Virus record (IMG/VR): IMGVR_UViG_3300032136_000005
Coordinates: 1 to 61,608 of that record
Strand: one strand, 5' to 3'
DNA length: 61,608 bases
Origin: a virus
Lineage: Duplodnaviria; Caudoviricetes
The notes under the pieces were generated by a model. It had not been told where the DNA came from and ran no database searches. It was given only the letters and a program-made list of their open reading frames with translations. This document shows, in pieces, positions 2,240-35,300 of the stretch; the first letter of the stretch is position 1; every line of letters starts with the position of its first letter. The position numbers and the translations under genes were made by a program.

Positions 2240-2271
2240 GTCTCTATCCTCAAAAGATGTGAAATATTAGA

Positions 2272-2649: not shown

Positions 2650-2876
2650 TAGAACGCCCGCCTGGTTTCAGTGATCTGCGGCGGAATTACCGCCCACGCC
2701 CGGATTGGATCTGGTCCATGATGTTGCCAAGGCGTCGATCCTTCTTTTTCTTGGCACTGTAAATCTTGTCGCCGACAGTATTTTTCTCTGCGGCGGTCAT
2801 AGGGGCGGATGGGGCGGGCGCGCGTGACATGCGGGCGGGGTGCTTTAATCTCATGGATGGTGCTCCTGGTTGGATG

Positions 2877-5156: not shown

Positions 5157-5176
5157 TCGGAGCTCCGGGTTTAATA

Positions 5177-5201
5177 CCCTGGAGCCAAGGCGGCTCCAGG
5201 G
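5177..5201 (-). terminator. GC-rich hairpin after capsid decoration gene (weak terminator or mRNA stabiliser)
   Basis: 10-bp stem CCCTGGAGCC/GGCTCCAGGG followed by TATTAAA on minus strand. Confidence 0.55.
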
Positions 5202-5219
5202 AAGGGCTACGCCCTCTGG

Positions 5220-5678: not shown

Positions 5679-5746
5679 TTCAAAAATCTCCTGAAAGTAA
5701 GGGTTGCCAGATAGGGGCGCCAGATGGCGTCCCTAATCAGGGACGA

Positions 5747-6853: not shown

Positions 6854-6932
6854 TTCGTAGTGCTCCTCAGTTGAATGTCAAACTTCAACTCGGTCGCACT
6901 CTTGCGCGAAAGGGCCGGGTTGGTGGGTAGCG

Positions 6933-7100
6933 TCAGCTGGTAACAGCTTTCGCCGGGGGGGTTGTCTGCGTCGCGAGCTTCACAGACTTGGGAGCGTCCA
7001 CCTTCAAGCGGACACGTCTCCCATGTTTTTTTACGAGCTCGATGCGGGTGTCTCCAACCAGGAGAGTCCCGCCGAGCTCGAGATCAACGAATGCCGACAT
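6933..7100 (-). CDS. 55-aa CsrA-fold protein (not in ORF track)
   Basis: MSAFVDLELGGTLLVGDTRIELVKKHGRRVRLKVDAPKSVKLATQTTPPAKAVTS; ATG abuts scaffold stop; VRL.VDAPKSV matches CsrA beta4-beta5. Confidence 0.7.
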   Translation of the reverse strand: MSAFVDLELGGTLLVGDTRIELVKKHGRRVRLKVDAPKSVKLATQTTPPAKAVTS

Positions 7101-8018
7101 TTAGCCCGCGCTCTCCAGCCAGGCGTCCACTTCGGAAGTGGGCATCTTGGCAAGCGCAGCCTCAAGGTCGTCACCTTCAAGCCCTTCCAGGTGTCGGAAC
7201 TTATCAGGCTCTATCATATTGTCATCCGCGGGCGGCACGTCGCCCAGGGTTTGCGGGATCTTGGGCTGGGCCTTTTTCGGCTTTGCCTGGACTTTTGGGG
7301 GCTGCGAGGCGGACTCTGCCCCGATATTCAAAGCTCCTTTAACCCGTTCTGCGGCCTTGAGAATCGCCGATCCGTAGTCGACGCCATTGAGTTCGCCGTC
7401 CTTGTACATTTTGTCCAGCGTGGCCTGCAGGAAGGTCTGGCGCATCGGGTCAAGAAACGCCGCGTTGGCCTCATCCTTAAAGAATGTCGACTGCGCGCGC
7501 TGCCAATTCAGGTCGTCCTCATAGGCCGAGCGCGTTGCCATCTTCGCGTCGTTGATCTCCTTCACGCGCTCGTGATACTGCGCGAAAGTCATGTCGCCGT
7601 CTTCGACCTTCTTACCCAGGCCTGCGTACTCTTCATCAAGGGCGCCCATGCTCTCCTGGTAGGCTCTGGAGAGCTCTGCTACGTCGTCCTGTTGAGTAGC
7701 GGTCCCAGCTTCTTCGCTCTTATCCTGGCCCTCGTCGCCGGCGGGCTGCTCCTCTTTGGCAGCTGCGGCGGGCTCAGGCTCCTGCTTGCCTGCCTCTTTG
7801 TCATCTTCAGCGGTCTCGACTTCCTGTTCCTCGCCATCGCCGGCGTCTTCCTCGTCTTTCGGCTTGTCGTCGGCATCGTCTCCTGGCTCGTCGTAATCCA
7901 GTGCGGCGCGCTCCTCATCGGAAAGGCCTTCCATTTCGTCGTCTGTCAGGCTATCCGGATTGACTGCTGCGGCTTCGTCGTCTACGTCTACTGCGGCTGC
8001 TGCTTGCTTCGGTGGCAT
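7101..8018 (-). CDS. Scaffolding protein
   Basis: Acidic helical 305 aa between portal and capsid; IPQTLGDVP...LE.ALA C-terminus. Confidence 0.75.
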   Translation of the reverse strand: MPPKQAAAAVDVDDEAAAVNPDSLTDDEMEGLSDEERAALDYDEPGDDADDKPKDEEDAGDGEEQEVETAEDDKEAGKQEPEPAAAAKEEQPAGDEGQDKSEEAGTATQQDDVAELSRAYQESMGALDEEYAGLGKKVEDGDMTFAQYHERVKEINDAKMATRSAYEDDLNWQRAQSTFFKDEANAAFLDPMRQTFLQATLDKMYKDGELNGVDYGSAILKAAERVKGALNIGAESASQPPKVQAKPKKAQPKIPQTLGDVPPADDNMIEPDKFRHLEGLEGDDLEAALAKMPTSEVDAWLESAG

Positions 8019-8033
8019 TTAGTAACTCCTCGA

Positions 8034-10217
8034 CTATTGGACCAGGGGAGGCGGCCCTGGCTGAACCAAGCCCGGCGCCGGCGGCACCGCTGGCTTGGGG
8101 GCCGAAGATTGCGCGGCCTCCTGCAGCAGTGTGTCGGCGGTAGGCGCAAGTGCTGGGGCCTGGAGACTTTCGAGTGCCGTCTGTAGTGAGGCGGAAAGGT
8201 TCTCCAGGGCAGCGCGCTGCGCCTCCTGCTGGGTCTTGGCGGTTTTCGCTTCCCGCTCCTCGATGGTAGATAGGGCGTCGCGCATGGCGAGCGCCGCCTG
8301 CTCCTGCTGCTGGCGCTCTTGCTCCATGCGCTTCTGAATCATCGCCGGGTCGTCTGGCTCGTCCGGGTCTGACTGGCCGTTGATCTGTCGAATCCTGGCA
8401 ACCATGGCGTCCTTGCCTGGCAGGTCGGACAACTCGAAAACCATGTCGAGCAACTGGATGGCGATCTCCGCGGGCTGCTTGGCCACCATATCGGACATCT
8501 GCTCGAACATTGCCTGGCGGACTGTCTCGTGGAATGGGGTCTCTTCGACGATGAAATCCGCCTGGCTGGCGGTGATAGGGTCTTCCAGCTCCCCGGTTTC
8601 TGGGTTGGCGCCGTTGATGTTTACGAATTCTGGTTTGCCGCGCTCGTTGGTGATCCGGATCACCTTTTCCCAGGAGTAAAACTGCTCGACATTGGAAAGC
8701 TGTAGCTCTCCGGATATCTGGATGGCGAGGCGCAGGTTGTCGAATAGGGTCGTCGTGACCACGGACCCCTGGTTTTGCCTGGCCATGATGGCCTTGCCGC
8801 TGGTTGCGTTGCTCTCAAGGCCCAGGTTCTCGCCAGTAACGCCGGACGTCTGGCGGATATACTCTGAGTCCTGGATCCCCATTTCGACATGCTCGCGCGC
8901 CAACCCGCGGTCGGTTTCCAGGGTGAAATCACTGCCACGTTTCTTGCGGATGACGCCAGAAGGATCCGCCACAATCTCCTCGACGTTGCCGTGTTCCTCT
9001 TCGTCCACAGCATCCTCGTCCATGATGACGCGGTTGCTGGACAGGATATACAGCGCCTTGCTGCGGCGCTTGTTAAGGTCTTCCTGCGGATCCCTGGCAT
9101 TGCGCAAAACGCCATACGGCTTTCCGTCTCTTGCCCTGCGGTAGCCCCAGACCGGCACAAATGGGTACCGCTGATGCCGATATGGGGTTGGAAGATCCTG
9201 GAGCAGCTGCCCGTCCTCGATGCCAACCGCGCAGCGCATCCGCATCCGGATGGCGTCGAATAGGATCAGGTCGCCCGTCTCGGTGGCCTCCTTCATTTCA
9301 CCGTTCGTTTCGTCGTACTCGAGACCATCGTAACGGTCCCATCCCCGCACGATCTGTACCTGGGCGGGTATCCGGTACCAGGTTTCAACCATGGGAATGA
9401 CGCGCCGCCGGCCCAGCTCCCGGGCAGACAAGGCATCGGCGACCACAACGGTATGGCTCGCATCGGCGTCGTAGTAAAGCTGGCTCTCGAAAAAGTCATC
9501 GGACGCATGCGAGGCGATCTGTTCGAGGGTGCCAGACGCTTTCAAGATCGTCTCTTTGGCCCATGGGAACATGGCGCCCGCTACATCTAGGTCCAGGATC
9601 CGCGCCCGGTGCAGGAACCTGGCATCGGATAGGTCAAACTCCCGCGAGATCGGGTCGTACCACATATTCCGCCAGCTCTCGGAGCGCACAAACAGCGGCT
9701 CGCGGTCTGCATTGCCGCGAATTCCGGTTTCGATCCATCCAAGGCCGGCGGTCGCGGCCTCGCGGAAAGCGCGGCTGCGGTGCCAGGGTGCGCGATTCAC
9801 GTCGCTGAGATACTTCAGCAGCTTGGTTTTACGCTCTGCCGGCACGCGATCCTCATCGGTGCGCGGGTGGACTTTCCAATCCACGCGGCTGCGGCGCTCG
9901 GTGCCGCAGATCCACTCGATTGCCGGCTTGCACTCGTTGAACACCAGCGGAGCCTGGCCCCGCTCCTGGAGCACCGCCTTGTCCTCCTCGGTCCATTGGA
10001 TTCCGTCCGCGAAATCCTCGTCGGTGGCCATTTCCTGCCGATTCTCGGCATGGTACACGCGAGACTGGTACCACCAATCACCCAGGCGGCCCTCGTGATC
10101 CTTGATGGCCTCCTGCATCTTCTGTTTCTTGCCGCCCTCGATGGCCTGGTAGCGCGCGTCCGCCTCAACGTCTCCCAGCACATCATCCAGGAGGATAGGC
10201 GCGTTCGATATCGGCAT
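8034..10217 (-). CDS. Portal protein (P22-like)
   Basis: DG.QW...D...L..RGQ.P...N, DPQ..LNKRRSK, LG..SNATSG.AI.ARQ.QG; Gln-rich barrel tail. Confidence 0.93.
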   Translation of the reverse strand: MPISNAPILLDDVLGDVEADARYQAIEGGKKQKMQEAIKDHEGRLGDWWYQSRVYHAENRQEMATDEDFADGIQWTEEDKAVLQERGQAPLVFNECKPAIEWICGTERRSRVDWKVHPRTDEDRVPAERKTKLLKYLSDVNRAPWHRSRAFREAATAGLGWIETGIRGNADREPLFVRSESWRNMWYDPISREFDLSDARFLHRARILDLDVAGAMFPWAKETILKASGTLEQIASHASDDFFESQLYYDADASHTVVVADALSARELGRRRVIPMVETWYRIPAQVQIVRGWDRYDGLEYDETNGEMKEATETGDLILFDAIRMRMRCAVGIEDGQLLQDLPTPYRHQRYPFVPVWGYRRARDGKPYGVLRNARDPQEDLNKRRSKALYILSSNRVIMDEDAVDEEEHGNVEEIVADPSGVIRKKRGSDFTLETDRGLAREHVEMGIQDSEYIRQTSGVTGENLGLESNATSGKAIMARQNQGSVVTTTLFDNLRLAIQISGELQLSNVEQFYSWEKVIRITNERGKPEFVNINGANPETGELEDPITASQADFIVEETPFHETVRQAMFEQMSDMVAKQPAEIAIQLLDMVFELSDLPGKDAMVARIRQINGQSDPDEPDDPAMIQKRMEQERQQQEQAALAMRDALSTIEEREAKTAKTQQEAQRAALENLSASLQTALESLQAPALAPTADTLLQEAAQSSAPKPAVPPAPGLVQPGPPPLVQ

Positions 10218-10468
10218 TTATGGCAGCTCCTCAAGGGTTGTGATGGTCAGCGGCTTACAGATCGCAATCGGCGGCGCTTGCTCGGCGCCCCGGTCAACAA
10301 ACACCAGGCGCAGATAGCCGCGATCATCGATATCGGCACTCACCAGGTCAGGCTCCTCTCCGAATTCGTGCGGCAGGCCATCCTCGATCTTGTGTCTTGA
10401 GCCGGTGCGAAGCATCTCTGCGACAGCTTCAGGTGTCATCACCAGCTCATAACGTGTGAGTATTTTGC

Positions 10469-10894
10469 TCATCGCGTAGTATCCAATAGCTCTTCGCCGT
10501 TCAGAGTGACCTTGAGTTGTTGGCGCTCGGCCTCTCGAACGATCTGGTCCATATCGAAGCCAGCCCATGGCGGCATCCGTATAAGGTCGGAAAGGTTGTC
10601 CACGATCACGCTCATGATCTTGAAACAAGTGTCTTTCGTAATACCCAAGCCAAGGTGTGAGGCAATCTCAACAGATTTGCCGATCAGGTACTTGGTGGGC
10701 TCTCCGGTCTGGCTGTCGGCATACATGTGGGCGGCGCTCAGCGGGATAACCCATGCGCTCCGCTTGATCCCCGCCCGGCCAAGGCACATACAGGGCTCAG
10801 TGTCATCGACCTTGTTCGTCGCCGAAACGTAACTGTAGAACAGCGTGAACTCGGGGTATTTCTTGGTCGGCGGTCGCTTGTTGTTCCTGGTCAC
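10469..10894 (-). CDS. Hypothetical protein between TerL and portal
   Basis: Tightly packed 141-aa ORF; next ORF MSKILTRYEL within 10218..10628 follows. Confidence 0.6.
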   Translation of the reverse strand: MTRNNKRPPTKKYPEFTLFYSYVSATNKVDDTEPCMCLGRAGIKRSAWVIPLSAAHMYADSQTGEPTKYLIGKSVEIASHLGLGITKDTCFKIMSVIVDNLSDLIRMPPWAGFDMDQIVREAERQQLKVTLNGEELLDTTR

Positions 10895-10896
10895 TG

Positions 10897-12426
10897 TTAC
10901 CTGGTTCTCCAGTTGCCGCGGCGTTGCGGTTTCTTGGCGGCCTTCTTGGCTTTGTAGCCCTGGGCGAACTGCCGGAAGGCGTCTGCCGGGTTACTGGCCC
11001 AATCGTGCAGCGGACGCTGCTTGAAGGTGCCCAGCTTCTCGTCCCATTCCTTTCTATAGTTGTCCAAGCCCTTGATTCCTGTCGCGCAGCGCGTCTCATC
11101 GATCCAGCACTCAGATAGGGATTGCCTGGTCATTTCGATGCCTTCGCCGATGTCCTGCACTCTGGGCACGATCTCGGTAGGCTTGATCTGCAAGCTGTTC
11201 AGCACTTGCTCGCGCGTCAGGTTGTCGCTGCGCGTGATGTCGGTCACCTCCGCGTCGTGCGGTAGGTAGTGCATGCCGTAGATATACGGCTTCTTCTTGA
11301 GCTCCTTGGCGTAGTGCTCAAGGGACTCGCCGCTGTTCTCGTAGTAGTCGATGAACCGGTAGACGCCACCAATGTGCTGCATGAACCAGATGGCATTCAC
11401 GTCGTTCCTGCCCAGATCCCAGAAGGTGTGCACCGGAAGTTTCGTGGCCACCGGGATCTTGAGGATCCGGCCCTCGCGGCGCATCGCGGCCATTTCCTTT
11501 GCGTAGTACGCGCCCTCGATGGCGACCTGAAAGGCCTCCTCGGGGGTAGACGGGTATTCCCGCAGGATGTCGTCGCCCAAGGCCCGCCACTTGGCGGCGT
11601 ACCAAGCGCGCTGCCCGAGATCCAGGGCAACGCCGTGCTCGTCCTCCAGTTTTGTGAAGTATTCGAGCTCGTAGTCGCGGAAAGTGAAGGCTTCTGCGAC
11701 CTCCGGCGAGAAGCGGTATTCCTTGCTATCCCACCATGGCTGGAAGTGAAACTTAAACTCCAGCGGGGTAAGCGGCCTGTGCTCCTTCTCGAGGTTCTGG
11801 GCCTCCTGGCACATATCGAAAAAGCGGCCCGCGTTGCCCTCGGCGGTGGACTCGAACACGGCGATCCCGTTCTGCGGGACAGCCTCGAGGGCGCCGGTCA
11901 TGATCTCCCGGGCTTTCTCTGGGTACTTGACCGCGATCTTGCCGAACTCAGATACGTGGAGCAGCTGCAGGGTGCCGGATCGGTAGCTCGTGCTGACCGA
12001 TATTGCCGATTCGGTGGTTTCTCCAGCCTCTTTGTGCTCGAAGATGAATTCTTTCGAGCGCGCCTGCTTGGCCGGGCTCATCATCTTGATGGCCTCGGGC
12101 AGGTTGTTGTACGGGACGCGGATCTTGGTCCGGAATATCTTTTCCGCGTCATCCAGGTTGTGAGCAATGATTCCGGCCTGGAAGCTGGCCTTCCACACAA
12201 CGCAGTCGAGGCCGTAGATACACATGGCCGTCGTGAATCCAAACTGCCGCGCTTTCAATATGACGTTGCGGGTATGCAGATTCAGCAGCAGGCGCATTTG
12301 CGCCTCGTTGGGTATGAACCGCACCAGGCGACCGCGCTTGTTCGCGATCATGTAGAGATTGGATAGGCGCCAGGCCTGGTCGGCGTATTGGCGCTGGTCT
12401 ATCTCAATCCTGACTGGCGCCTCCAT
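10897..12426 (-). CDS. terL: Terminase large subunit
   Basis: ILKARQFGFTT Walker A, LLHVSE Walker B, ESTAEG, WDLG..D and HDWASNPADAFR nuclease motifs. Confidence 0.95.
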   Translation of the reverse strand: MEAPVRIEIDQRQYADQAWRLSNLYMIANKRGRLVRFIPNEAQMRLLLNLHTRNVILKARQFGFTTAMCIYGLDCVVWKASFQAGIIAHNLDDAEKIFRTKIRVPYNNLPEAIKMMSPAKQARSKEFIFEHKEAGETTESAISVSTSYRSGTLQLLHVSEFGKIAVKYPEKAREIMTGALEAVPQNGIAVFESTAEGNAGRFFDMCQEAQNLEKEHRPLTPLEFKFHFQPWWDSKEYRFSPEVAEAFTFRDYELEYFTKLEDEHGVALDLGQRAWYAAKWRALGDDILREYPSTPEEAFQVAIEGAYYAKEMAAMRREGRILKIPVATKLPVHTFWDLGRNDVNAIWFMQHIGGVYRFIDYYENSGESLEHYAKELKKKPYIYGMHYLPHDAEVTDITRSDNLTREQVLNSLQIKPTEIVPRVQDIGEGIEMTRQSLSECWIDETRCATGIKGLDNYRKEWDEKLGTFKQRPLHDWASNPADAFRQFAQGYKAKKAAKKPQRRGNWRTR

Positions 12427-12429
12427 CCA

Positions 12430-13014
12430 TCATTCAGAATCAAATTGGCTGCGGGCGGCCAGCGAAAGGTCAAACTTCAATGTCCCCGGCTTGCCGGTGT
12501 CGCTGTTCTTCTGCACGAAGTTGAATAGGTCTCTCAGCACTGAGCTCTCATCTGCTTTGGCCTTATTCTTTGCCCCAAAGCCAAGCATTTCAGCTGTCCT
12601 GGCCAAGCATGACTCCCGATTAACAAAGGTTAGCTTGAACATTCCGCCCTGCATCGGGGTGATGGAGGCAATGGCCCTGCGCTCTGCTTCCGGAATCTCA
12701 TCCCATGGCCGCAAGTCACCGACATCATTCAGTATTTTCGAGATATCGAAATCCGCGAGCTGCCAAAGCCGCTGCACAATTTCATCCTCGGTGATGTGGT
12801 TACGCTCTGCAGTTGCCTCGGCTTTCGCGGCCAGGTACAACTTCGCCTCTTCGCGTCTCAGTAAGCGCGAAGCGGCGGCAGCGGCGGCTTTCCCGGTGGC
12901 GCGATAATGCCGCGCATAAACAGTGCCTTGAGCCTCATCTGGGTGGGCGTACAGATCATCCAGAAAGAATATCTGCAGCGGCGTGAGCTTCTTGGCCTTT
13001 GTCTTCTTCGGCAT
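12430..13014 (-). CDS. terS: Terminase small subunit
   Basis: LTP.Q..F, ASRLL, ITEDEIVQRLWQLADFDI; directly upstream of terL. Confidence 0.85.
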   Translation of the reverse strand: MPKKTKAKKLTPLQIFFLDDLYAHPDEAQGTVYARHYRATGKAAAAAASRLLRREEAKLYLAAKAEATAERNHITEDEIVQRLWQLADFDISKILNDVGDLRPWDEIPEAERRAIASITPMQGGMFKLTFVNRESCLARTAEMLGFGAKNKAKADESSVLRDLFNFVQKNSDTGKPGTLKFDLSLAARSQFDSE

Positions 13015-13016
13015 AA

Positions 13017-13044
13017 GAAAAAAGGCCCGCGTCGCGGCGGGCCA
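13017..13044 (-). terminator. Rho-independent terminator just upstream of terS
   Basis: Minus strand GGCCCGC-CGCGAC-GCGGGCC-TTTTTTCTT then ATG. Confidence 0.8.
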
Positions 13045-13105
13045 GTCCTTGAATCACCATTTCGGGGGTGGGTATCTTCACAGGCAGCTGTGGAGCATGG
13101 CGATA

Positions 13106-13134
13106 ACAGTAGTGAAAACGGCAGGGTTTGCCAA
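13106..13134 (-). promoter_or_regulatory. Putative sigma70 late promoter
   Basis: TTGGCA-17 bp-TACTGT on minus strand, pointing at terminator and terS. Confidence 0.65.
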
Positions 13135-13185
13135 CTATTTCAGTAACTTAACCGTGCACGGTATTAGGATATATGCCGCGTGCGA

Positions 13186-14208
13186 TCAGTCTGACGCATT
13201 TCCTGGGGCAAAGGGGGGATTTTCCCCTGTTTCATTGCTGAGCGCCGTCGCGATTGCGGCAAGGTCATTCCTCGCAGCGACCAGGTGCAATTCTGCGAAG
13301 GGTTCTTTGATGGCTGTCATCTTCACAACATCCGACACGAAACGGCGCCACAGCGAGTCAAAACCACGGTGCGAGTCTGTATCTGGGTCGTGGTATGGCT
13401 TTCCAAGGCGACTGACGATCAGGTATGGATCCCGGTGCGTCGGGGCCATCGATCGCAGGATATTGACTGCTGACCGCATAAATCCATCCGGATCCCAGGG
13501 CACTATGTCGTCGCCAATCAAGATTCCCCCGGACTTGATATGGCCCGGGCCTAATGTCAGGAGCTCGCGGCGGGTTGCTCCGGTTATCAGCTTGAGCGCG
13601 ACGTAGCACTTGCCGATCTGCAGGGTTCGGCGACGCCGGCGGTCGATATTCTCATCGATGCCCATGAACATAATCTCGCTGATCTCCCAGGGCTCAAGAT
13701 ATCTCCGGAGTATTGGGCGGTCCTTGCGTGGCGGCTCGAGTAGGGGATTTTCATCCACAAGGCCCCAGATAGCGGCCTGGCTCAGGCAGTTTGTAAGCAC
13801 GTCGATGTCGTTGGCGGCGCTGGTGATGCCATTGCCGACGCCGCGCCACTGCCGGCGAGCAGATAAATCAAGATATTTGCTGGCATGATCGTGAGTAACG
13901 CTTTCCATGCGCACATGCCCGAAAACCGGGCGCAGACGCCGAAAGCTGGTGATGTATATCTCTGCCCTGGCCCGCGGCATGTTGGGTATCTCGGATACCA
14001 GCATCCGGTCGAACAGGTCTCCGATCGTCACGGTGTCCGCCGGGTAGGTCTCCGCTAATTTTCTGGCCCACTCGTCCCAGGCCTCATCCAGTGTACGGCC
14101 CAGCTTGTACTCCTGGCAGTCGTCCCACAGCAGCTCCAAGCCAGGCGGAACCCTATACCAATAGAAACCCCTGCGGTGGCGCCAACGCGCGGGCAGCTGG
14201 TCACTCAT
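13186..14208 (-). CDS. Tyrosine-integrase-derived protein, apparently catalytically inactive
   Basis: Arm-binding N-terminus (RGFYWYRVP..KLG), core-binding (WGLVDENP), LITGATRRELL; HxxR, late His and Tyr region absent. Confidence 0.75.
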   Translation of the reverse strand: MSDQLPARWRHRRGFYWYRVPPGLELLWDDCQEYKLGRTLDEAWDEWARKLAETYPADTVTIGDLFDRMLVSEIPNMPRARAEIYITSFRRLRPVFGHVRMESVTHDHASKYLDLSARRQWRGVGNGITSAANDIDVLTNCLSQAAIWGLVDENPLLEPPRKDRPILRRYLEPWEISEIMFMGIDENIDRRRRRTLQIGKCYVALKLITGATRRELLTLGPGHIKSGGILIGDDIVPWDPDGFMRSAVNILRSMAPTHRDPYLIVSRLGKPYHDPDTDSHRGFDSLWRRFVSDVVKMTAIKEPFAELHLVAARNDLAAIATALSNETGENPPFAPGNASD

Positions 14209-20093: not shown

Positions 20094-20327
20094 TCAATCG
20101 GTAAGCGCGGTGAAGTCCGGCTCTGATTCAGGTAATCCTGTATTTCCTTGTCGTTTGCCTTTTTGGCCATCCTTGTGATCCTCGTAGTCTTCGCGTTTCA
20201 GTAGAACCAGGCCATCTGCACGCCGATGGGGTCGAAACCCCCTGGCAGTAAGCCAGCGTATCTGTGCGCCAGCGCGCTCGCGGCCAGTAAACTCCCGCAG
20301 CTCGTCCTGGGTAAGGTAGAAGGTCAC
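20094..20327 (-). CDS. DUF4224 excisionase-like protein
   Basis: LT..EL.E.TG......QIRWL...G......R.DG, C-terminal EPDF.AL. Confidence 0.8.
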   Translation of the reverse strand: MTFYLTQDELREFTGRERAGAQIRWLTARGFRPHRRADGLVLLKREDYEDHKDGQKGKRQGNTGLPESEPDFTALTD

Positions 20328-20749
20328 ACCCGGCGCTCGACCAACCCGTAGCGGGACAGCATTTCCTGTTCTGATCGCTTCTCAGGATCATCATCTTCAT
20401 CGGCCGATAGTTGGGTCTTTGGGCCGCGCAACATGATCTCGTGACGCAACAGCTTTACCTCTTTAGGGGCCGTAAAGCCGAGGCGAACCTGCTCCTTGGT
20501 GACCTGCAGCACGGCCACATTGACAGGCCCAACCACCACGTCCTGTTCGAGCTGCACGGTCACAGTTACGGGAATTCCGCCCCAATGGTCGATGAAATCC
20601 TGATCTGCTCCGGAATGCAGAGAAATAGCTGACCGCTCCGGGGCGGTGATTTGCAGGCGTACCGAAAACCGCGATATTCCGACCACGGTAATCATCATGT
20701 CATCGCCCATTAGAACGCTCTCTCGGACTCTCCTCGTCAGTATCAACAT
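20324..20749 (-). CDS. csrA: Tandem two-domain CsrA/RsmA-family RNA-binding protein
   Basis: MLILTRRVRESVLMGDD..ITVV...VRLQITAP then VAVLQV..EQVRLGFTAPKEVKLLRHEI. Confidence 0.85.
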   Translation of the reverse strand: MLILTRRVRESVLMGDDMMITVVGISRFSVRLQITAPERSAISLHSGADQDFIDHWGGIPVTVTVQLEQDVVVGPVNVAVLQVTKEQVRLGFTAPKEVKLLRHEIMLRGPKTQLSADEDDDPEKRSEQEMLSRYGLVERRV

Positions 20750-21759
20750 TACTTTTCCCCATCTAAGTCAAAGCCACCCTGAGCCCAATACGGCGGCGGC
20801 TCTGAACCGGTCTGCAGTGGCGCCATTGCTGGCAAATCGTCGAGCGCCCCAGGTGGTGGCGGGTCATCTACCGGGATCTTGCTTTTCGGCTCCATGGTCG
20901 CCGGCGGCTTCTCCTTGCCCTTCTTTTTGGTCTCGGGATTTATCTTGGCCTCCCGGTCAATCGTCTTGCCGTCCATCGGCTTGTCACCAGGAACACCCTG
21001 GTCGGCCGTGACCGGCTGCAGCTTGGGCTTGGTTGCCTGCAAAATGTCGTCCAGGTCGCTGCCTTTCTGGTGCTCGATATGTTTCCTATCCTTGGTTTCA
21101 CCAAGTGTCGGTTTCTCTTCCTTGGCGTCAAAGTCGTGATCGAGCTCAACGATCGAATCAGCCACCTCGTCGTCGAATGGCATGTTTCCGACCTCTTCCG
21201 GAAACGCCCGGCGCAACGCCAAGGCCTCCGCCGCCTTTATCAGCATGCTGCGCGGGCGCTTCCGCCACATGCTGTTAAGCTGGCCGCTGTTCAGGATATT
21301 GGCCGACTCCATGAAGAAGGCCTCGCCAGTGAAGCTGGCTTTAATGACCTCGTGACCAACTACAATTGCCCGCTGCACCTCGACGATCGCGAACTCAGGA
21401 ACCTGCTGGCCATTAAAATCGAACTCCTTGCCAAGCACGGCGCGGGTCTGACCGATGTACTGCCCGGTGCGGTGGGCGGTCAAGCGAGCCTCATACACAC
21501 CCGGGAGGATCTGGGCGCGATCGCGCCATTTCTCGTAGCCCTCGATGGTGGTGTATTTCTCTTTGAAGGAGACGATCTCGACCGGTTTTTTGAGCGGGTC
21601 CAGTTTCCGCTCCTTGCAGTAGGCCAGGTAGATCAACAGCGTATTGACGTCATGGCCCGGGAACATGTTGCGGCTTAGGTAGTTCCAGGCTTCGTCACTA
21701 CAGCCCAGCTTGTTGAGTCGCGCGCGCAAAGACTCGCGCTCTTTGGCTTCAGTGTTCAT
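20749..21759 (-). CDS. bet: Bet/RecT-like single-strand annealing protein
   Basis: C...LDPLKK, A.RTGQY.G, W...PRSML.K.AEA.ALRRAFPE; ATG overlaps exonuclease stop. Confidence 0.85.
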   Translation of the reverse strand: MNTEAKERESLRARLNKLGCSDEAWNYLSRNMFPGHDVNTLLIYLAYCKERKLDPLKKPVEIVSFKEKYTTIEGYEKWRDRAQILPGVYEARLTAHRTGQYIGQTRAVLGKEFDFNGQQVPEFAIVEVQRAIVVGHEVIKASFTGEAFFMESANILNSGQLNSMWRKRPRSMLIKAAEALALRRAFPEEVGNMPFDDEVADSIVELDHDFDAKEEKPTLGETKDRKHIEHQKGSDLDDILQATKPKLQPVTADQGVPGDKPMDGKTIDREAKINPETKKKGKEKPPATMEPKSKIPVDDPPPPGALDDLPAMAPLQTGSEPPPYWAQGGFDLDGEK

Positions 21760-22808
21760 AACGTGATTTCCTCCGCAGTGAATTCCTCGACATCGATAGA
21801 GTTGATGTCCAGGCCCCGCTCTGCGGCGAACTCGGCTTTGCGCTTTAGCCAGCCGGGCATAGCAAGGCCCCAGGGCTCGGGGTCGTAGGCGGGCCACTCG
21901 TTCTTATCGAGGGCATTGGCCAGCAGACGCACGCCACGGCGGTACTCGTTGTAGCCGTGCTCCAGCAGCTCGGGCTCGCAATAGCAGGCACTCACGGCCC
22001 AGGGGTTTTCCTTCTCCTGGGCGATAAACCAGAAGTTGTCGCCCAGGTCGTCGTCGGCAGCGTGGCGGATCCCGTCCAGGTACATCGCCGACTGAACGTG
22101 GTACTGGAAGTCAATCGCGAGGCGCTGAAACTTCCATTGTGCGGCGCTGATTGTCGATTTCAGGTCTGCAGCCAGAACCTTCGGTCTGTATCGGTCGGCG
22201 CGACACTTGAGCAGCAGGCCCGTCTCCTTGTCCTCCCAGAAGAATGAGACCTCAGACTCGCCGCCGGCCAGGATCTCGGTTGCGGGCTTGTGGTCGCGGA
22301 TCGCCTTGCCCATGCCCAGCAGCGCCTTGCCCTGCTTGGCGTTGAGAATCGTGCGCTTGCCGGCGGTGACGTAGAACGCCTCCATGACCAGCGGCCAAAT
22401 CCGATTAGGATCCATCCCGCCCTCGTCGCGCAGGCGCCTGGCCAGCTCGATCTTGGTGCCGCCCACCTTCAGCTCCAGCGCCTTGCAGTGCGCTTTGAGA
22501 TTGTTCACGCCGTCGATGGCGCCCTCGGTGTCGGCCATGTCCGGCTCGATAATGAATCGCTCCTTGAAGTTTTCAGGCTCCAGAACGAGCGTGTGGTATG
22601 CGTGACCCATGTCGAGGTTCGCGTTCTCCTTTTCCTCGCGCTCGGGGTCGACATGCTTGGCGTAGGCGTGCGCCAGGGTTTGCTTACAGATTGTCTTGAT
22701 GGTCGAGGATCCCCAGGCTCCCAGCTCGCGGGCGTGGTAGTGGTCCTCTGGCATGTTGCGGTAAACACCAGGCGCCGGCGGCGCTGGCTTGACGTGGTCA
22801 TTCATCAT
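21756..22808 (-). CDS. RecE/ExoVIII-like PD-(D/E)XK exonuclease (DUF3799-like) with SAP-like insertion
   Basis: G.A.HTLVLEPE.F, EVSFFW.D..TG...KCR.D, DLKST, Y.VQ.A.Y.DG, F.FIA.EK. Confidence 0.85.
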   Translation of the reverse strand: MMNDHVKPAPPAPGVYRNMPEDHYHARELGAWGSSTIKTICKQTLAHAYAKHVDPEREEKENANLDMGHAYHTLVLEPENFKERFIIEPDMADTEGAIDGVNNLKAHCKALELKVGGTKIELARRLRDEGGMDPNRIWPLVMEAFYVTAGKRTILNAKQGKALLGMGKAIRDHKPATEILAGGESEVSFFWEDKETGLLLKCRADRYRPKVLAADLKSTISAAQWKFQRLAIDFQYHVQSAMYLDGIRHAADDDLGDNFWFIAQEKENPWAVSACYCEPELLEHGYNEYRRGVRLLANALDKNEWPAYDPEPWGLAMPGWLKRKAEFAAERGLDINSIDVEEFTAEEITL

Positions 22809-22985: not shown

Positions 22986-23255
22986 ATGAGCGGTCGACCG
23001 CAGTCACTTTCGACAGAGACGCTGAACCAGGTTGTAAGCAGCCTGCAAGACAGATTCCGAAGACACCTCGGGAGATACCCGAAAATCGCTGAAATCGGCG
23101 ATATCCCGATCCAGACAATTTACAAGCTCACGCATAACCCACCGGAAACCTTCAACTGGAAGTTCGACACGCTGCGCAATTTGGAGCGTGGCCTAGACGC
23201 TTACGAGCGGCATATTGTCGAGGAGTTGACCAGTGGCGCGAATTCGAACCATTAA
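22986..23255 (+). CDS. Cro-like HTH regulator
   Basis: IAEIGDIPIQTIYKL...N.KFDTLRNL; first rightward gene; GAGG RBS. Confidence 0.7.
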   Translation: MSGRPQSLSTETLNQVVSSLQDRFRRHLGRYPKIAEIGDIPIQTIYKLTHNPPETFNWKFDTLRNLERGLDAYERHIVEELTSGANSNH

Positions 23256-23991
23256 GCCGGAATTCTGGCAGGACGAAGACCTGGCAGGCACTTCCTACGA
23301 GGCTCGGCTGATGGCCATCGCACTGCTGAATCATGCCGATGACGAGGGTTATTTCAGGGCGCATCCGTCCCTGGTAAAAGCCGCGTGCTTTGCGTTCGAC
23401 GATGATTCGTCGATCGTTCGACGAACAATCGACGAGCTCTCGAACATAGGGTATTTGGAGCTGTTTTTAGGGCTCGACGGTAAGCGGTACGGTCGTATTT
23501 CTGGATTCTCAAAACATCAGAGAGTTGACCGCAAAAAGGAAAGCACAATCAAGGGCTTATATGACTCGTCGAGCCCTCGACGATCAATCGACGATCAATC
23601 GACGCTGGAAGGGAAGGGAAAGGAAGTAAAAGAAAAGACTACTAACGTAGTCCAAAAGAAAAAACCGAAAACCGGCAAAACTCTGGTGCCTGCAGATTGG
23701 GTGCCAGACGAAAAGCTGTCGGACTGGTTCCACGATCAGCAGTTCGATTTCACACTGGCGAGCATGGTTGAGAGCTACATTGACGGGTGCCACTCGAAGC
23801 GCCTGATGTACGTCGACCACTGTGCCGCCTTCCGCAACTGGAGCAAAATGCGCCATGAGAGACAAGCCAAAGGTGGCGGGGGAGCTGGCGAAAGCCGTGC
23901 GAAACGCCATCACGACAAACTCCGGGAGATTGCCGAAAGAAGCATCGCCGAGGAGCGGGCTCGCGAGACGAGCGGAGGGGGCGCTACCTGA
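23233..23991 (+). CDS. Phage replication initiator (O-like)
   Basis: MARIRTIKPEFW.DE, ADDEG, F.KHQR; C-terminal P.DW.P...AAFRNW. Confidence 0.85.
   Translation: MARIRTIKPEFWQDEDLAGTSYEARLMAIALLNHADDEGYFRAHPSLVKAACFAFDDDSSIVRRTIDELSNIGYLELFLGLDGKRYGRISGFSKHQRVDRKKESTIKGLYDSSSPRRSIDDQSTLEGKGKEVKEKTTNVVQKKKPKTGKTLVPADWVPDEKLSDWFHDQQFDFTLASMVESYIDGCHSKRLMYVDHCAAFRNWSKMRHERQAKGGGGAGESRAKRHHDKLREIAERSIAEERARETSGGGAT
23401..23640. repeat. Iteron-like TCGACGA clusters plus A-rich tract (candidate replication origin)
   Basis: TTCGACGAACAATCGACGAG near 23417; TCGACGATCAATCGACGATCAATCGACG near 23577; A-rich 23608-23640. Confidence 0.55.
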
Positions 23992-29358: not shown

Positions 29359-32300
29359 TTATTGCAAATTGGGATGGACCTTTGATTGTAGCGCGTATTG
29401 CCGAAGATCTTCGACTCTGCGCTTTATGCGCTCATTCCAGTCCGCTACCAGCTCTTTACGGTCCTCCATGGTCAGGTTTTTATCCCTGGCCTGCTTGTTG
29501 CGGCGCTGGATCATTTCCGTGATCTCGAACCTTGCCCGCTTGATATTCAGCGTTCTGGAGTGGACTGGATCCACTGCGTAGGTGTTCACGCCGAACAGCC
29601 GCAGCGCCGCCTGGGGAACCGTGCTCTTGGGCTGGCCATAGCGGTCAACCGTGTTGTTGAGAGCCCGGTACATGTGCCCGGCAACGCCATACTCGGTAAG
29701 CCAGGTCGGGGCCGACAGCTTGTACAGGTAGTTCATCAGATCCGCGGCCTGCTTGGCCGGGTCGTCGTACTTATTGACGATCTCGCGGCCAGTGAACGGG
29801 TCGACGTTGGTCTTTACGGCGGCGATCATATCGGGAATGGGGCCGCCCAGGACGCCGGTCGATTTCACTGCATCGCCAATCTCGCCCCTGCCGACTTGCT
29901 TGGCCATTTCACTCCACATAGTCCAGGGGAGGAAGTATCCGAAGTCAGCAGCAAACCACCGGCCGCCAGAGTCCTTCCATGGCAAGAAGTAAGCATGGCC
30001 TCGATCCTGCAGCCATTTCGGAAGCGCCAGGCGCAGGGCCTCCACGTCGTCGTCGTCGACGTCTGCGGCCTGCTCCAACAATGCGGACATCGCGTAAGGT
30101 ATGGCAAGATATGGGGCGAAGCGCCAAGGCGCCGTGACCATAGTCTCCAACAACCTCGGGGCGACTTTCATGTAAAACGTCAAGAACGGCACGCCCACCG
30201 GTGCGTTGCGCAGGTAGCGCATCGATGGCGTGACCAGGGAATAGTCGAAAAGCCATTTCTGGGCCTGCAATGCAGCGTCCGCAGGATCCGCGCCCTTCTC
30301 CAGCTCGTCGATGATCTTGGCGGTCTTGAATATCTGCTCCGAGAATTGGTACGCATCGCTGGCGACGTCCATGATTTTCGACCACAGCAGCTTGAGCTGG
30401 ACCCATGTGTATTGGCCCTTGGTCTTGGCCTCGAGTTCGAGCATATCCCGCTCCATGCGGAATAACTCTTGGGCGGCGAAGGTCGATTCGGTGACGCCGT
30501 ACTTCTTTGCCACATAAAAGCCCTTCCACTCGCTCTTTGGCTTGCCCTGGCCGGCGGCGATAATCTGGCGGATCGCCTGGATCACACGCTTTGGTACCCG
30601 GTGGAAAGGCACGCCAGACAAGTGCAGCAGCACCCCGTTGGACACGAAGTTTCGCACCTGGGCCGGCGGGTTGGCGGCGACCTTCATCCATTTCCACAGC
30701 TGCGTAAACTTGGTCGCATAGCCACCGGTGCCAAGGATCTGCTCGGCAATTGACTGGTCGCCGGATACCACGTTCATCGAACCAACAATGTCGTCGTGGA
30801 TCTCCTTGCGCACCACCAGGCCGCGCATGACGCCAAAGCGGGGTTTGTTGGGGATCTGCTTGAAGCCATCCGGAACGCTGGTCAGCTGCTCGTCGGAAAG
30901 CGCATCCGCGACTGCCTGTTTCATGCCCTGCATGATCTCGGTGGCCTTGCCCTGGTCCTCGACTGGCATGTGGGGTATCTGGGCGTCGAGCCGCTTGGCC
31001 TCATTTGCAAGCCAGAAAGGTGTCACTTTGCGGGTATGCGTCTCGCCCTCGCGATCGGTCCAGCTCCACTCCATGATGGATTGCTGCAGGATCCAATCGG
31101 GGTTGTTGGCGATATCGGCAAGCCAATCCAGGATGGCCATATCGCGCTCCTGCTGGCCGTAGCCCCTCGAGGCCAGAAACGCCGGGTCGCGGATTTCCCC
31201 CAGAATCAGCTTGCGGATCTCCTCGGGGATATCCTTGCGCTGCTTAAGGTACCCCATGTCGCTTGGCATCTTGCCGGTGCTCATGCGGACAATATCCTGG
31301 TCCCTCAGTAGGTGCATGAGGTACAAGCGCGGCAGGTAGCTTCCCTTGTTCTGCTCGTAGACCTCCTCGGACAGTAGGCCTCTATCAACCAGGCGCCGGC
31401 CTGTATTCATCATCTGCAGCTTGGCCTGGACCGCAGCCTTTCGGGCGGCTTTGTTCTCGATGATCTCTGGCGAAACCTCCGCATTGGTCAGGTACTCAAA
31501 CACCTTTGGCGCTTCTTCGCCGGCAATAGCCAGGGCTGCGTGCAGCTCCTTGGCGCGATCGCTGATGCTGGCGATCTGGCCCAGGGTTTTGTAGCGGCGC
31601 TTCAGGTAGTCCTCGCGGCCTGGCAGGGTGCCGATCGAGCCGAACGAATCCAGCTTTTCGTGCATCTTGCTCATTACCTTGGACATTTGGTTGACCTTGG
31701 CGCGCGTGCCCAGGTCGGAGGATTGCTTCTTGAACCTGATATCTTGGTTCGAGGAATCGAAGGTGCCGCGGTTGCTGGTCGATTTGATCTGCTCTGGCTT
31801 GAACGCGATTACCTCCTCGATGCGATCGCGCCAGTCTGGCCTATCGCTGTCGCTTGCGACAATCACTACGCCGTCATGTCCCTGGGCTTTAGCCTGACCA
31901 ACCAGGAACGGGTCGGTGATTCCTTCATACTGATAAATCAACGGATTTTTGATGCTCAGGTAGACCGGGTAGACATAGCCGCGCTGCGCCTTCCTGAGCT
32001 GGTCGCGGTGGTCTTGCCATTTCTGCGAAAACTTCTTCAGCTCTCTGTATTTGGGGCTGTCATAACCAAGGTCGATAGCCTCCATCATTGGCGAAGTGCC
32101 GAGCTCCTTTGCCTTCTTCTCGTAGGCCTCATACAGTTTGTCGCCAACAGGGTCCGTATTGATTGCTGCATCGTTGGCGTAGCCCTCAGCCATCCAGCTT
32201 GAGGGTGTAAAGTGGACGCCTGGCCCCCAATCGACATTTTGTACATCGCCGGCGCGGTTGGTATCGAATACCCGAATGTCGCCGCGCGCTGTGCCGTGGT

Positions 32301-35300
32301 ACATGACGATCGGCTTGCTATCCTTGTCGGCAATCTTGCTGCCCTCGAACCAGGCCTTAAACGCTTCAGTCTCGGTGACATCAGCGGGGCCGTAGTTGTT
32401 GGTGGCGGTCTTCTGGAACATCGGGAAGCCGTGCTTGCGGGCGGTCTCGTTCATCGAGTCGGTGATCTCCATCGTCCAGACTTCGACCGTCTCGTTCTCG
32501 TAGTACGGGGCGCCGCCCTGCACCTGGATACTGCCAGGCTTCACCTGGGCGCCGAACTTCTTGGCGAACTTCTTGGCGTAGTTCACCAGCATCCGGTCGT
32601 AGAACATCATCATGCCGTGCCCGCCCACCTTCAGGTTTTCGCCCTCGATGGTCATCACATCATAGCCGGCGTCGATCGTGTTGATCCGGTTCGTAAAGGT
32701 CATGCCAGGCGGGTTCCCTTTGCGGTTCTCCTGGGTCAGGCGGGCCTGGGCGTCGATGAGCCTGGAATAGTTGCCCATGTTCTGCTCGTTGCCGTCCTGG
32801 TCGACCGAAATCACCTGGTATTCCTTTGCCCGCTCGAAGCCTTCGCGAGCGGCGTACTTCTTGGCTATCTCGGCGCCGACATACTCCTCCAGCTTCGCCT
32901 CCTCGATGCTCTCCTCCTTCACCACGCTGCCCTCGTTCCAGGCCTGGATCTCAACCATGCCGGCCTGGTCCGGGATCAGCATGATCTTGTCGGCCACGCG
33001 TGACAGGCTGTAACGCTCTGCCTGCTGCTCGCCGGTTGTCCAGGCAACCAGCTGGGTGCCGTTCCTTGCGGCCTCCCAGACTGCCCAGCGGAACGCGGCC
33101 TCGTGCCAGGTCTTTTTCAGCGGCGCATCTGGCACGCCCTTATTCATGGCGCGCTCTCGACCGCTTACCTCTTGGACCTTGAGCTTAAAGTCGACCACTT
33201 GCTTAGTCAGATCCAGCAGCTCGTCGCGGATTGGGTCCAGCCTGCCCAGGAATGGCGCCATCGCAGGGTAGTCATCCGCGACCCTGTTAATCTCCTCAGC
33301 CATCGACCGCGTAATTTCTCCCGCCGGCTTGGCTACACCGCCGGCGTTCTGCGACTGGCGGAAGCGGTGCCACTTGTCGTAGATGCCGAATATCTTGGTG
33401 CCAAGCACATTGTTGAGGCGGTGCTTGTCATTGACCGCATAGATTTCCTCCATGATGTCGTTCGCCAGGTCGGCCTGCTGCGCGGCCTCACCCTCCAGGG
33501 CCTCGACCTCCTTCTGGAAAGCGGCCTTGGCCTTGGCCAGCTTTTCCAGCTGGGCAGTGTCGGCTACCTTCTCGTAACCATGCTTGCGGCCTTCCTGGTG
33601 CCAGTCGGATTGGATCTCCTCGATCAATGTGGTTGATCGGCTGCTGCCGTCCAGGCGATCGGTCAGGCGAACGTGCATCATCACGTCCTCATCGCCCCAA
33701 TGCCCGCCGCTGAAGTGCTTGGTCCGGGTCGCGGGCATGTTCTGCAGCTGCAGCAGGATCTCCCGGTAGTTGGACTTCTCGGCACCTGGCAGGGCGTAGT
33801 CCTTGTACTCAGCCTCGCGCAGCTGGTCGTTGGTGACGTCGGCGGGGATCGATGGTTTGCCGGTCTGCTGCAGCTTCTCTTGGGCTGCTTCCTTGGTCTC
33901 CCGGACAGTGATATCGCGCAGCTCCTCGATCAGGTCTTCGCGGTCGCTGTTGCTGCCCTCAAGGCCTCCCACACTGTTAAGGGCCTCCCAGCCATCGCCC
34001 TCGCCTCCGCTCTGCAGGGTGTACTCGTTGGATACCAGGGTCTCGCCCGCGTAGTTGCCGTCGATCGTGATCGACTGCTCGTATTCGGGGAATTCGTAGT
34101 ATTGTGCATTGGCATAGTTCATCGCCAACGGCATCAGATCCTCGTCGGTCGGCTCGTAGTCCTCGGGGTACTCGAATAGCTCGGGATCGTCGCCGATCTC
34201 CATGTCGTTCTCTCTCAGCCATTCACGCACCAGATCGTCGCGGTTGTCGGCCAGGTAGTCCTCTGCGTTGGACTCCAGGAACTCGTCGGACGGGTCGACC
34301 TCCCTGACGTCGCCTTCCTGCGTGTCGGTCTCAACGTCGTACTCGTCGAATTCCTCCTGGATGACGCCGTACAGCGGGCGGATCTCTGGGGCCTGGGCGT
34401 AGGCGATCGCACTGAGCTCGTCGCGGGCGACAGACTGATTGGACCGCTCGGCCAGGTACTCGTCGACGCCGGTCCATGCCAGCTCGGCCTCTTTCACGCC
34501 GCGCTTGCGCAGCATCCCCAGCCATTGCTGGCCGGTGGCCTTCGCCTGGGGGGTGTCCTCGATGGCACGCGCCAGGTAGGAATACAGGGCGGTGGTCGAC
34601 TGGCGCTCCTGGCTGAAGCGACCGGGGCCGCTCCTGGTCGGGGTCGTGCGGCGGGCCTTCCCGGTGCGGATCCCCTCAGCGATCGAGGCGACCAGCTCGC
34701 GGAGCTCGGCCTTGGTAACGACGCCTTTCAGTAGGCCCAGCTTGCGCAAAGCCTTGTTTACCAGGGTAACGATCTCGTCCCAGACCTTCGCCATGCCCTC
34801 GCGGGGCTTCTCGGCCAGGCTGGCGAACACCTCCTCGGCTTGGGCCAGGGCATCGCCGGCCAGGTTGGGGTTGTCCTTGCGCACCTCGGCGAACACTGCG
34901 GCCATTCCGGGCATGTTCTCAGACGCGGCGATCTTCTCCAGAATGGCCCGCTTCGTCTTGGGGTCGAACAGATTGAGGCCATAGTGGGCCAGGATTTCGT
35001 GGCGCATGGCCTCGATGGCCTGCTTCTTGTTGGCGATGTTCTCAGCGACCAGGACCAGCTCGCCGGTCTTGGCGTAGTAGGCGGCGCGCACGGCCTCCTT
35101 GATATCGGGGAATCGCTCGGCCTGGGTGGCGATCGTGGTGATCCTGACGTCAACGCGGTTGTTCAGGCCCTCCAGGAACGTGCCCGCCGCTTGCTCGACG
35201 TCTGCTACGGGCATGCTATTGGCAGGCTTGCGGCCCAGCTTGTTCTGCTTGCTGAACCACTGCTCGCCGCCACCAGACATTTGCCCCGACTGGCTCAGGG

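Follow-up and report, generated by a model that had tools for sequence, protein, structure and literature searches.

Introduction

CsrA regulation relies on two identical RNA sites, which underlie the tethering and bridging of mRNAs, cooperative capture by sponge RNAs of the CsrB/RsmZ type, and RNA-driven condensates. In CsrA, the chain of each protomer is extended and needs the partner subunit for its completion. To our knowledge, a monovalent CsrA has until now existed solely in the form of laboratory constructs. Here we describe a gene that encodes two CsrA repeats in one chain of 141 amino acids and that lies on the minus strand of IMG/VR virus record IMGVR_UViG_3300032136_000005 (Duplodnaviria; Caudoviricetes), all 61,608 nucleotides of which were analyzed and are referred to below as the window. 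We consider it reasonably probable that the product of this gene is a natural single-chain CsrA that is monovalent and has one canonical RNA site.

The sheets of CsrA are described as taking their central strands from one subunit and their peripheral beta1 and beta5 strands from the other, and its RNA surfaces as formed where beta1 of one monomer runs parallel to beta5 of the other, with L4 and R44 being critical (PMC7652899); Ye et al. 2018 (PMC5864733) locate each site in a patch made of beta1', beta4, and beta5. Full repression of glgC is reported to need both pockets and bridging, and hfq to have a single site (PMC7652899, on Mercante 2009). Heterodimers of wild-type and R44A CsrA are monovalent and still bind but lose bridging and full repression (PMC7652899), and RNA-driven CsrA foci did not take up a monovalent CsrA heterodimer at native level (PMC12019536). 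The wild-type/R44A heterodimers are laboratory mixtures of two chains, whereas the phage protein is a gene product.

The closest known counterpart of the phage protein is Re-CsrA (PDB 5Z38), an engineered chain built for a single site by joining CsrA residues 1-44 through a GGGGSGGGGS linker to full-length CsrA (PMC5864733). In the crystal, Re-CsrA forms a compact barrel described as "quite similar" to the native swapped dimer, P37 being the last ordered residue of the first moiety; it bound RNA as well as CesT and took one ligand per chain (PMC5864733). Like Re-CsrA, the phage protein is predicted to have one intact beta1'/beta4/beta5/helix site in one chain, and its degenerate beta5 is mirrored by the beta5 and linker of the first Re-CsrA moiety, which are dispensable. 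The overall layout is also the same, namely, a helix-less first moiety, a linker, a complete second moiety, and one intact site. Re-CsrA, however, is man-made from two identical Escherichia coli sequences, whereas the phage repeats are natural and locally about 32% identical, and unlike Re-CsrA the phage protein has a second face without basic residues, a 14-residue linker that is structured in the model, and a 29-residue tail with a conserved predicted helix. As Re-CsrA folds and binds RNA, there is a precedent showing that a single-chain, one-site architecture works.

With the canonical homodimers of CsrA, RsmA, and RsmE (1Y00, 1VPZ, 2BTI, and 2JPP), the phage protein shares the family, the strand order and, on one face, the chemistry of L2, L4, R6, R44, and E46. 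These homodimers consist of two chains with two identical sites, whereas the phage protein is one chain with one canonical site and thus should be unable to bridge two GGA sites. RsmN/RsmF is a homodimer with a helix inserted between beta2 and beta3. It resembles the phage protein in its rearranged CsrA fold (4KJI, 4K59, and 4KRW; VIA-align Z 4.2 to 4.6 over model residues 1..106) but differs from it in that the phage model has no helix between beta2 and beta3 in either repeat.

CsrA homologs of phages and plasmids, including RsmM-type proteins in Pseudomonas aeruginosa phages, are known from Sobrero and Valverde 2020 (PMC7366521) and Campa et al. 2021 (PMC8450108), which in the parts covered describe single-domain proteins only; like the present gene, they reside on mobile elements, and a role in manipulating the post-transcriptional control of the host has been proposed for them. 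In tblastn searches of phages, the best matches to our query were likewise single-domain CsrA homolog genes. Each of the 56 matching phage records covered at most 40% of the query, none reaching 80%, and each of the 12 matching plasmid records covered at most 32%. No natural tandem CsrA was found in the literature, with subscription journals and supplements lying outside the search (among them the phage CsrA tables of PMC7366521 and PMC8450108, which may list longer homologs), and the word "tandem" is absent from the portions of these two texts that were searched. What is new here, as judged from sequence, is a natural single-chain variant of the known CsrA family in which conserved residues mark one canonical RNA site.

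Two CsrA repeats in one open reading frame

Re-translation gave an open reading frame (ORF) of 141 amino acids with an ATG start at 20324..20749 on the minus strand, with the same boundaries as in an earlier note on this DNA, made from the sequence alone, which had read the product as two CsrA repeats in one polypeptide. The Pfam family CsrA (PF02599; gathering cut-off, 27 bits) matched the whole ORF in two stretches (E 4.5e-22, 78.2 bits). When the model was run on the DNA, with a separate score for each repeat, both repeat 1 (20624-20749; 46.3 bits) and repeat 2 (20429-20560; 37.5 bits) exceeded the cut-off, and both lie within a single open frame with no stop, which bears out that reading. 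The motifs quoted in the note were all found as well, LILTRR at residues 2-7, AISLHS (with L44) at 41-46, VTVTVQ at 61-66, and VKLLRHEI (with R102) at 98-105. The parts of the gene are as follows.

20324..20749, minus strand: whole ORF, single-chain tandem CsrA, 141 amino acids (stop codon 20324-20326; Pfam)
20612..20749, minus strand: repeat 1, residues 1-46, with canonical beta1 to beta4, a degenerate beta5, and no C-terminal helix (Pfam and model strands)
20729..20746, minus strand: intact beta1 of repeat 1, LILTRR, residues 2-7, giving L2, L4, R6, and R7 to the putative intact site
20612..20629, minus strand: degenerate beta5 of repeat 1, AISLHS, residues 41-46, with Leu at 44 (sequence)
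20570..20611, minus strand: crossover linker GADQDFIDHWGGIP, 14 residues (47-60), leading from beta5 of repeat 1 to beta1 of repeat 2, with an extra strand at 49-53 in the model
20552..20569, minus strand: degenerate beta1 of repeat 2, VTVTVQ, residues 61-66 (sequence and superposition)
20414..20569, minus strand: repeat 2, residues 61-112, predicted to fold as a full CsrA protomer, with beta5 and the beginning of the helix (Pfam, 37.5 bits; VIA-align)
20435..20458, minus strand: intact beta5 of repeat 2, VKLLRHEI, residues 98-105 (R102 codon at 20444-20446)
20327..20413, minus strand: C-terminal tail, residues 113-141, an acidic low-confidence stretch followed by a predicted helix at 122-133 (model and alignment A3, see below)

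A phmmer search against PDB sequences returned 13 matches at an E value of at most 10, 9 of which were CsrA/RsmA-family chains, and 6 of these 9 aligned twice to the query, as did 7yr6_E on residues 1-42 and 80-110. Over about 40 residues, repeat 1 shared 52 to 55% identity with CsrA from Gammaproteobacteria and metagenomes. Comparison of the two repeats with each other by BLASTP gave only 7 identities in 22 positions (about 32%; E 0.003), thus indicating that the repeats are old copies of each other.

One of the two predicted RNA faces is degenerate

We compared the residues on the two faces that the repeats would form with those of the CsrA sites. The first face, to which repeat 1 contributes beta1 and repeat 2 contributes beta4/beta5, carries L2, L4, R6, R7, R89, G91, K96, R102, and E104, where R89, G91, K96, R102, and E104 are the repeat 2 equivalents of CsrA R31, G33, K38, R44, and E46, respectively. 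On the second face, with beta1 from repeat 2 and beta4/beta5 from repeat 1, the residues are V61, V63, V65, Q66, Q33, E38, S43, L44, and S46. The beta5 region of repeat 1 thus differs from CsrA by R44 to L44, K38 to E38, and H43 to S43, and the match of our own hidden Markov model (HMM) to repeat 1 stops at position 40. The beta1 strand of repeat 2, VTVTVQ, is still hydrophobic, with both of its basic residues gone (R6 to V65 and R7/K7 to Q66). CsrA has two identical surfaces, each with L4/R6 and R44, and just one surface of the phage protein qualifies as such. The complementary losses leaving a single site, as claimed in the earlier note, were therefore recovered by computation, L4, R6, and R7 being kept together with R102 and E104 on one face, and the same residues are conserved in relatives. 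We consider it likely that the protein has one functional canonical RNA site.

The two degenerate strands are exactly the pair that the fusion joins. As the last strand of repeat 1 (beta5) is fused to the first strand of repeat 2 (beta1), the linker runs at precisely one of the two sites, and since beta5 and beta1 are parallel, its 14 residues would have to cross back along the degenerate face.

Predicted fold

AlphaFold2 (AF2) was run on a 36-sequence alignment of tandem relatives and gave a model with a mean predicted local distance difference test score (pLDDT) of 88.4 and a predicted template modeling score of 0.72. Means over ten-residue blocks were 87 to 97 across residues 1-110, which form one compact beta domain. 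The model strands lie at residues 2-6, 11-14, 18-25, 29-35, and 42-46 in repeat 1 and at 61-66, 70-73, 76-83, 88-93, and 100-102 in repeat 2, with the linker strand at 49-53, and DSSP assigned helices solely at 103-107 and 122-133. Repeat 2 of the model thus has the five beta strands and C-terminal helix of a CsrA protomer, and repeat 1 has beta1 to beta4 and a degenerate fifth strand, with no helix.

VIA-align superposed repeat 2 on 1vpz_B (Z 5.3, root mean square deviation 1.7 Å, 55 residues), on 2bti_B (Z 5.2, 1.5 Å, 55 residues), and on the Re-CsrA chain 5z38_H (Z 5.2, 1.4 Å, 54 residues), the aligned model segment being 57..112 in each case, and a wider VIA-align search gave a similar match. 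The superposition on CsrA/RsmA protomers places VTVTVQ at the position of beta1. A failure of the second repeat to adopt the CsrA fold was the outcome that the earlier note had named as refuting its reading; in the predicted model, repeat 2 takes that fold to within 1.4 to 1.7 Å over 54 to 55 residues. Generic beta-sandwich matches covered model residues 1..104-108 as a single domain. The top VIA-align rows (Z up to 8.2) were generic beta sandwiches such as viral fusion-protein and forkhead-associated domains, which we treated as matches to a common arrangement. Together, the protomer-like repeat 2 and the span of the beta-sandwich as a single domain point to an intramolecular pseudo-dimer. 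Foldseek found no match in the PDB at an E value of at most 1e-3, as expected since one CsrA chain is half of a domain. A single job predicting a complex of two copies of the tandem CsrA returned scores of 0.00, 0.33, and 0.00, which weigh neither for nor against self-association. On the basis of the model, it is very likely that both repeats form the CsrA fold within one chain.

Relatives and direction of the losses

An exhaustive phmmer search collected 848 proteins at an E value of at most 1e-3, many of them aligning end to end as tandems, the closest being P0011 (161 amino acids, E 1.3e-18) and P0012 (162 amino acids, E 1.2e-15). We built three alignments of tandem relatives, namely, A1 with 17 sequences, A2 with 36, and A5 with 22 that share the loss pattern of the query. 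R6, P95, R102, and E104 were invariant in A1, R6, P95, and R102 in A2, and the columns equivalent to the same three residues in A5, while E104 was nearly invariant in A2 and A5 and L2 in all three alignments. The conserved residues R6, P95, R102, and E104 are those of the one intact site.

In order to count loss patterns, we built an HMM from 91 single-domain matches and scored four elements, beta1 and beta5 of each repeat. Set 1 comprised 274 proteins retrieved by similarity to the query, 71 of them with two repeats; set 2 was obtained by searching proteins of at least 115 amino acids with the canonical single-domain profile, and of the best 120 matches, 89 were new and 88 of these had two repeats. 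All four elements were kept in 42 of the 71 two-repeat proteins of set 1, and 23 had the pattern of the query; the reverse pattern did not occur, 3 proteins lacked beta1 of repeat 2 alone, and three other patterns were seen once each. Among the 88 of set 2, 75 were intact, 4 had the pattern of the query, and none had the reverse. Single losses in set 2 numbered six on the linker side (beta1 of repeat 2 in 4 and beta5 of repeat 1 in 2) and three on the outer side (beta1 of repeat 1 in 2 and beta5 of repeat 2 in 1). Over both sets, the query's pattern was thus present in 27 of 159 two-repeat proteins and its reverse in none of the 159, counts that carry a bias, in that set 1 was drawn by similarity to the query and the best-120 list of set 2 favors intact duplicates. 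A directional loss of this kind is consistent with a cost imposed by the linker.

Tandem CsrA is not unique to this phage, and metagenomes contain many such proteins. Two or more CsrA repeats were found in 159 of the 177 proteins (90%) of at least 115 amino acids gathered from all searches. The profile search yielded 3993 proteins of at least 115 amino acids at an E value of at most 1e-6, and 6,247 of 8,000 scored candidates matched the CsrA profile more than once. In the most compact tandems, a single strand stands in place of both linker-side strands. One of these relatives, P0132, has 88 amino acids and was confidently predicted (pLDDT 87.4) to fold with nine strands, a single one of them bridging, and an Atlas cluster of 88-amino-acid proteins (56 members, 53% viral) matched the Atlas's own model of the query protein with a template modeling score of 0.92.

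CsrA proteins with three or four repeats were also seen (P0014, P0016, P0032, and P0342). P0014 resembles two one-site units in tandem, and P0016 and P0032 have two intact repeats together with a pair whose elements are lost in permuted order. Separately, a 234-kb metagenome contig (L005) has a single ORF of 4603 amino acids at 84..13895 on the plus strand, in which a two-repeat CsrA segment occurs among unrelated enzyme-like modules. These modules are each preceded by an R-[S/A]-E-V-R peptide just before a Met, like genes fused without stops, and the ORF could be a polyprotein, contain a recoded stop, or reflect a read-through Shine-Dalgarno-like spacer.

A syntenic ortholog and the C-terminal tail

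A 4.8-kb metagenome fragment (L004) of a second phage has the same gene order as the window, with a tandem CsrA gene between the RecT and DUF4224 genes. Its CsrA has 161 amino acids and is 36% identical to that of the window, the other products being 81% (exonuclease), 49% (RecT), 51% (DUF4224 gene), and 64% (zinc-finger ORF) identical, with three further ORFs at 38 to 76%. The fragment came solely from the metagenome scan; the pattern scans found no relatives of P0011 or P0012 in viral contigs and none of P0011 or P0001 in genome contigs.

Alignment A3, restricted to the three closest proteins (P0001, P0011, and P0012), had 35 invariant columns, including L2, L4, T5, R6, R31, P37, R89, G91, A94, P95, R102, and E104. 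Between residues 41 and 67, solely G47 and L67 were invariant. The tail of the phage protein had block-mean pLDDT values of 44 to 79 and contains the helix predicted by AF2 at 122-133. Its motif Q128, L131, R133, Y134, and G135 was invariant in A3, was also readable in the L004 protein, and was absent from the other tandem CsrAs of alignments A2 and A5. The motif may be a partner-binding or self-association peptide.

A second CsrA-fold gene and the search for an RNA partner

The earlier note had combined the tandem gene with a second CsrA-fold gene and a candidate small RNA into a post-transcriptional control system of the phage. The following gene is the second one.

6933..7100, minus strand: second CsrA-fold gene, 55 amino acids (phrog_8397, "CsrA-like regulator", E 1.3e-8)

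This gene reached just 17.3 bits on the Pfam CsrA family. It has the scaffold-like gene on one side and the major head gene on the other and is a conserved small capsid-module gene in related phages, the counterparts being annotated as CsrA-like regulator in Klebsiella phages LASTA, SJM3, SopranoGao, and ZX1. In the alignment, Leu occupies the R6 position and Thr the R44 position, so that both RNA-site arginines are missing. Were the second protein able to dimerize with a CsrA chain of the host, each of the two hybrid sites would, speculatively, be defective.

Rfam found no family in the window at the gathering score or at an E value of at most 1 and thus no Csr/Rsm sponge RNA, and the window has no tRNAs. 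We also scanned both strands of the window for hairpins with GGA in the loop and a stem of at least 4 base pairs, which gave 156 on the plus strand, where the mean of 20 block-shuffles was 151, and 199 on the minus strand. A cluster of 7 such hairpins within 150 nucleotides at position 44 (3 to 6 in the shuffles) was considered as a small RNA and rejected, as it is a coding 18-nucleotide repeat. The proposed system therefore found no support: the second gene is real but belongs to the capsid module and lacks R6 and R44, and the window had no Rfam match, the sole excess of GGA hairpins being the coding repeat.

Setting in the phage genome

The record is classed as linear and estimated by CheckV to be about 90% complete. 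The window also encodes a large terminase, a portal protein, and a major head protein, the last of which is about 50 to 51% identical to those of Pseudomonas phage Itty13, Burkholderia phages DC1, Bcep22, and BcepIL02, and Ralstonia GP4-like phages. The features mentioned in this section are as follows.

20749..21897, minus strand: RecT-family recombinase, upstream neighbor of the tandem CsrA gene (Pfam RecT, E 9.7e-14)
20094..20327, minus strand: DUF4224/excisionase-like gene, downstream neighbor (Pfam DUF4224, E 4.8e-12; PHROG excisionase families, E 6.7e-8)
13186..14208: integrase
5747..6853: major head gene
7101..8018: scaffold-like gene
29359..43389, minus strand: ORF of 4676 amino acids

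We take a giant virion-associated protein of a size similar to that of the 4676-amino-acid ORF to be typical of Bcep22-like podophages. The source of the record is a temperate Bcep22/Itty13-like podophage. The early operon runs leftward from a PDDEXK exonuclease gene through RecT, the tandem CsrA gene, the DUF4224 gene, and small ORFs to the integrase. The start codon of the tandem CsrA gene overlaps the stop of the RecT gene (TAATG), and its TGA stop overlaps the GTG start of the DUF4224/excisionase-like gene (GTGA); these overlaps with both neighbors indicate that the gene is a translationally coupled member of the operon. Among deposited phages the early region had no close relative, blastn finding 2 records at 2% coverage, and tblastn with the exonuclease gave 47 records, all below 60% identity.

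The two ends of the record overlap, positions 1..126 being identical to 61471..61596. The overlap enters an 18-nucleotide tandem repeat (13.1 copies at 26..261 and 6.3 copies at 61496..61608), which on the minus strand encodes a run of DPVVDP-type units inside an ORF spanning the junction. Despite the linear class of the record, the genome is probably closed or terminally redundant. In addition, 11-nucleotide tandem repeats at 23393..23435 (3.9 copies) and 23577..23604 (2.5 copies) lie inside a replication-initiator-like gene at 23233..23991 (phrog_1408, E 3.4e-37) and are candidate iterons or a candidate origin.

Discussion

From sequence features, predicted fold, conservation, and synteny, we infer that the phage protein would be a monomer that binds RNA 1:1, and the targets and physiological role put forward here are to be read in the same conditional sense. 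Two anciently duplicated CsrA repeats would fold onto each other and build the interlocked beta-sandwich otherwise made by two subunits. The site on the linker side would have been sacrificed, its basic residues being lost (L44, E38, V65, and Q66), and the other site, formed by beta1 of repeat 1 and beta4/beta5 of repeat 2, would retain L2, L4, R6, R7, R89, K96, R102, and E104. With one face degenerate and the other kept, the protein is most likely a monovalent binder of GGA-type RNA motifs. Expressed from the early-left operon of a temperate phage, it would occupy single GGA sites at ribosome-binding sites or in hairpins without bridging two sites, it would not exchange subunits with host CsrA, and multi-site sponge RNAs such as CsrB or RsmZ would capture it less avidly than a two-site protein. 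Such a protein would give the phage its own Csr-type influence on translation, whether of host or phage genes, free of coupling to the host Csr titration circuit. We regard these proposed physiological consequences as plausible, if short of probable.

Several observations weigh against a monovalent single-chain CsrA. The putative intact site is not fully canonical, as L101 takes the place of H43 and repeat 2 has lost one residue between beta2 and beta3. The equivalence to a CsrA dimer is drawn from the protomer-like repeat 2 and the single compact domain, and the census carries the bias described above. Neither Rfam nor the GGA-hairpin scan revealed a GGA-rich RNA partner in the phage. The repeat 1 beta5 arginine that is absent from the query is present as R44 in P0011 and in the L004 protein and as R43 in P0012; this variability fits a relaxed constraint, and the relatives may keep a partial second face. 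Finally, the conserved C-terminal helix could self-associate or bind a partner, restoring multivalency.

The last two points bear on the alternative that the protein is still multivalent, either through a degenerate face with a new specificity for RNA or protein or through association by the C-terminal helix or by swapping of repeats between chains, with at least two intact sites in a new geometry. In its favor are also the invariance of the helix motif in the three closest relatives and the existence of tandems with three or four repeats (P0014, P0016, and P0032). However, the residues of the degenerate face are not conserved in the three orthologs, only G47 and L67 being kept between 41 and 67, the linker, at 14 residues, exceeds the 10 residues that were sufficient for intramolecular folding of Re-CsrA (PMC5864733), and AF2 confidently folds the single chain as one domain. 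We therefore think this alternative unlikely.

A CsrA-shaped decoy appears more improbable still. Such a protein would bind a host protein that docks on the RNA site of CsrA, as FliW or CesT does, or would soak up the GGA sites of sponge RNAs and so free host CsrA. CesT does bind the beta1'/beta4/beta5/helix patch that RNA also binds, and Re-CsrA binds CesT 1:1 per site (PMC5864733); Campa et al. also propose that phage RsmA homologs manipulate their hosts (PMC8450108). The residues kept in the phage protein, however, are exactly those that contact RNA (the equivalents of L4, R6, and R44), and no FliW- or CesT-like gene was noticed among its neighbors in the family scans. That the gene is a decaying duplication without function is hardly credible, for although half of the canonical binding elements are lost and the repeats share just 32% identity across 22 aligned positions, the gene has an intact frame and is translationally coupled to the genes on either side, a syntenic ortholog exists at 36% identity, 35 columns including the site residues are invariant, the predicted fold is of high confidence, and the identical loss pattern recurs in 27 other proteins.

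Extending the monovalent single-chain reading, we also put forward a broader proposal, which is doubtful as a whole. Natural monovalent single-chain CsrAs may form a widespread undescribed class, enriched in phages and uncultivated bacteria and born of the loss of the linker-side site upon fusion. Phages would use them as effectors that are insensitive to sponges, do not exchange subunits, and override or antagonize host Csr/Rsm regulation, and in the present phage lineage the conserved C-terminal helix would in addition recruit a host factor to the bound RNA.

The breadth of the one-site tandem class calls for a proper survey. The protein itself, predicted to be monomeric, offers a compact GGA-binding module for structural work and engineering. 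A natural one-site CsrA, in a phage lineage and in metagenomic proteins, would be a ready-made test of what the bivalency of CsrA is for, and it suggests a way for mobile elements to act on Csr-regulated targets outside the reach of the host's titration circuit.

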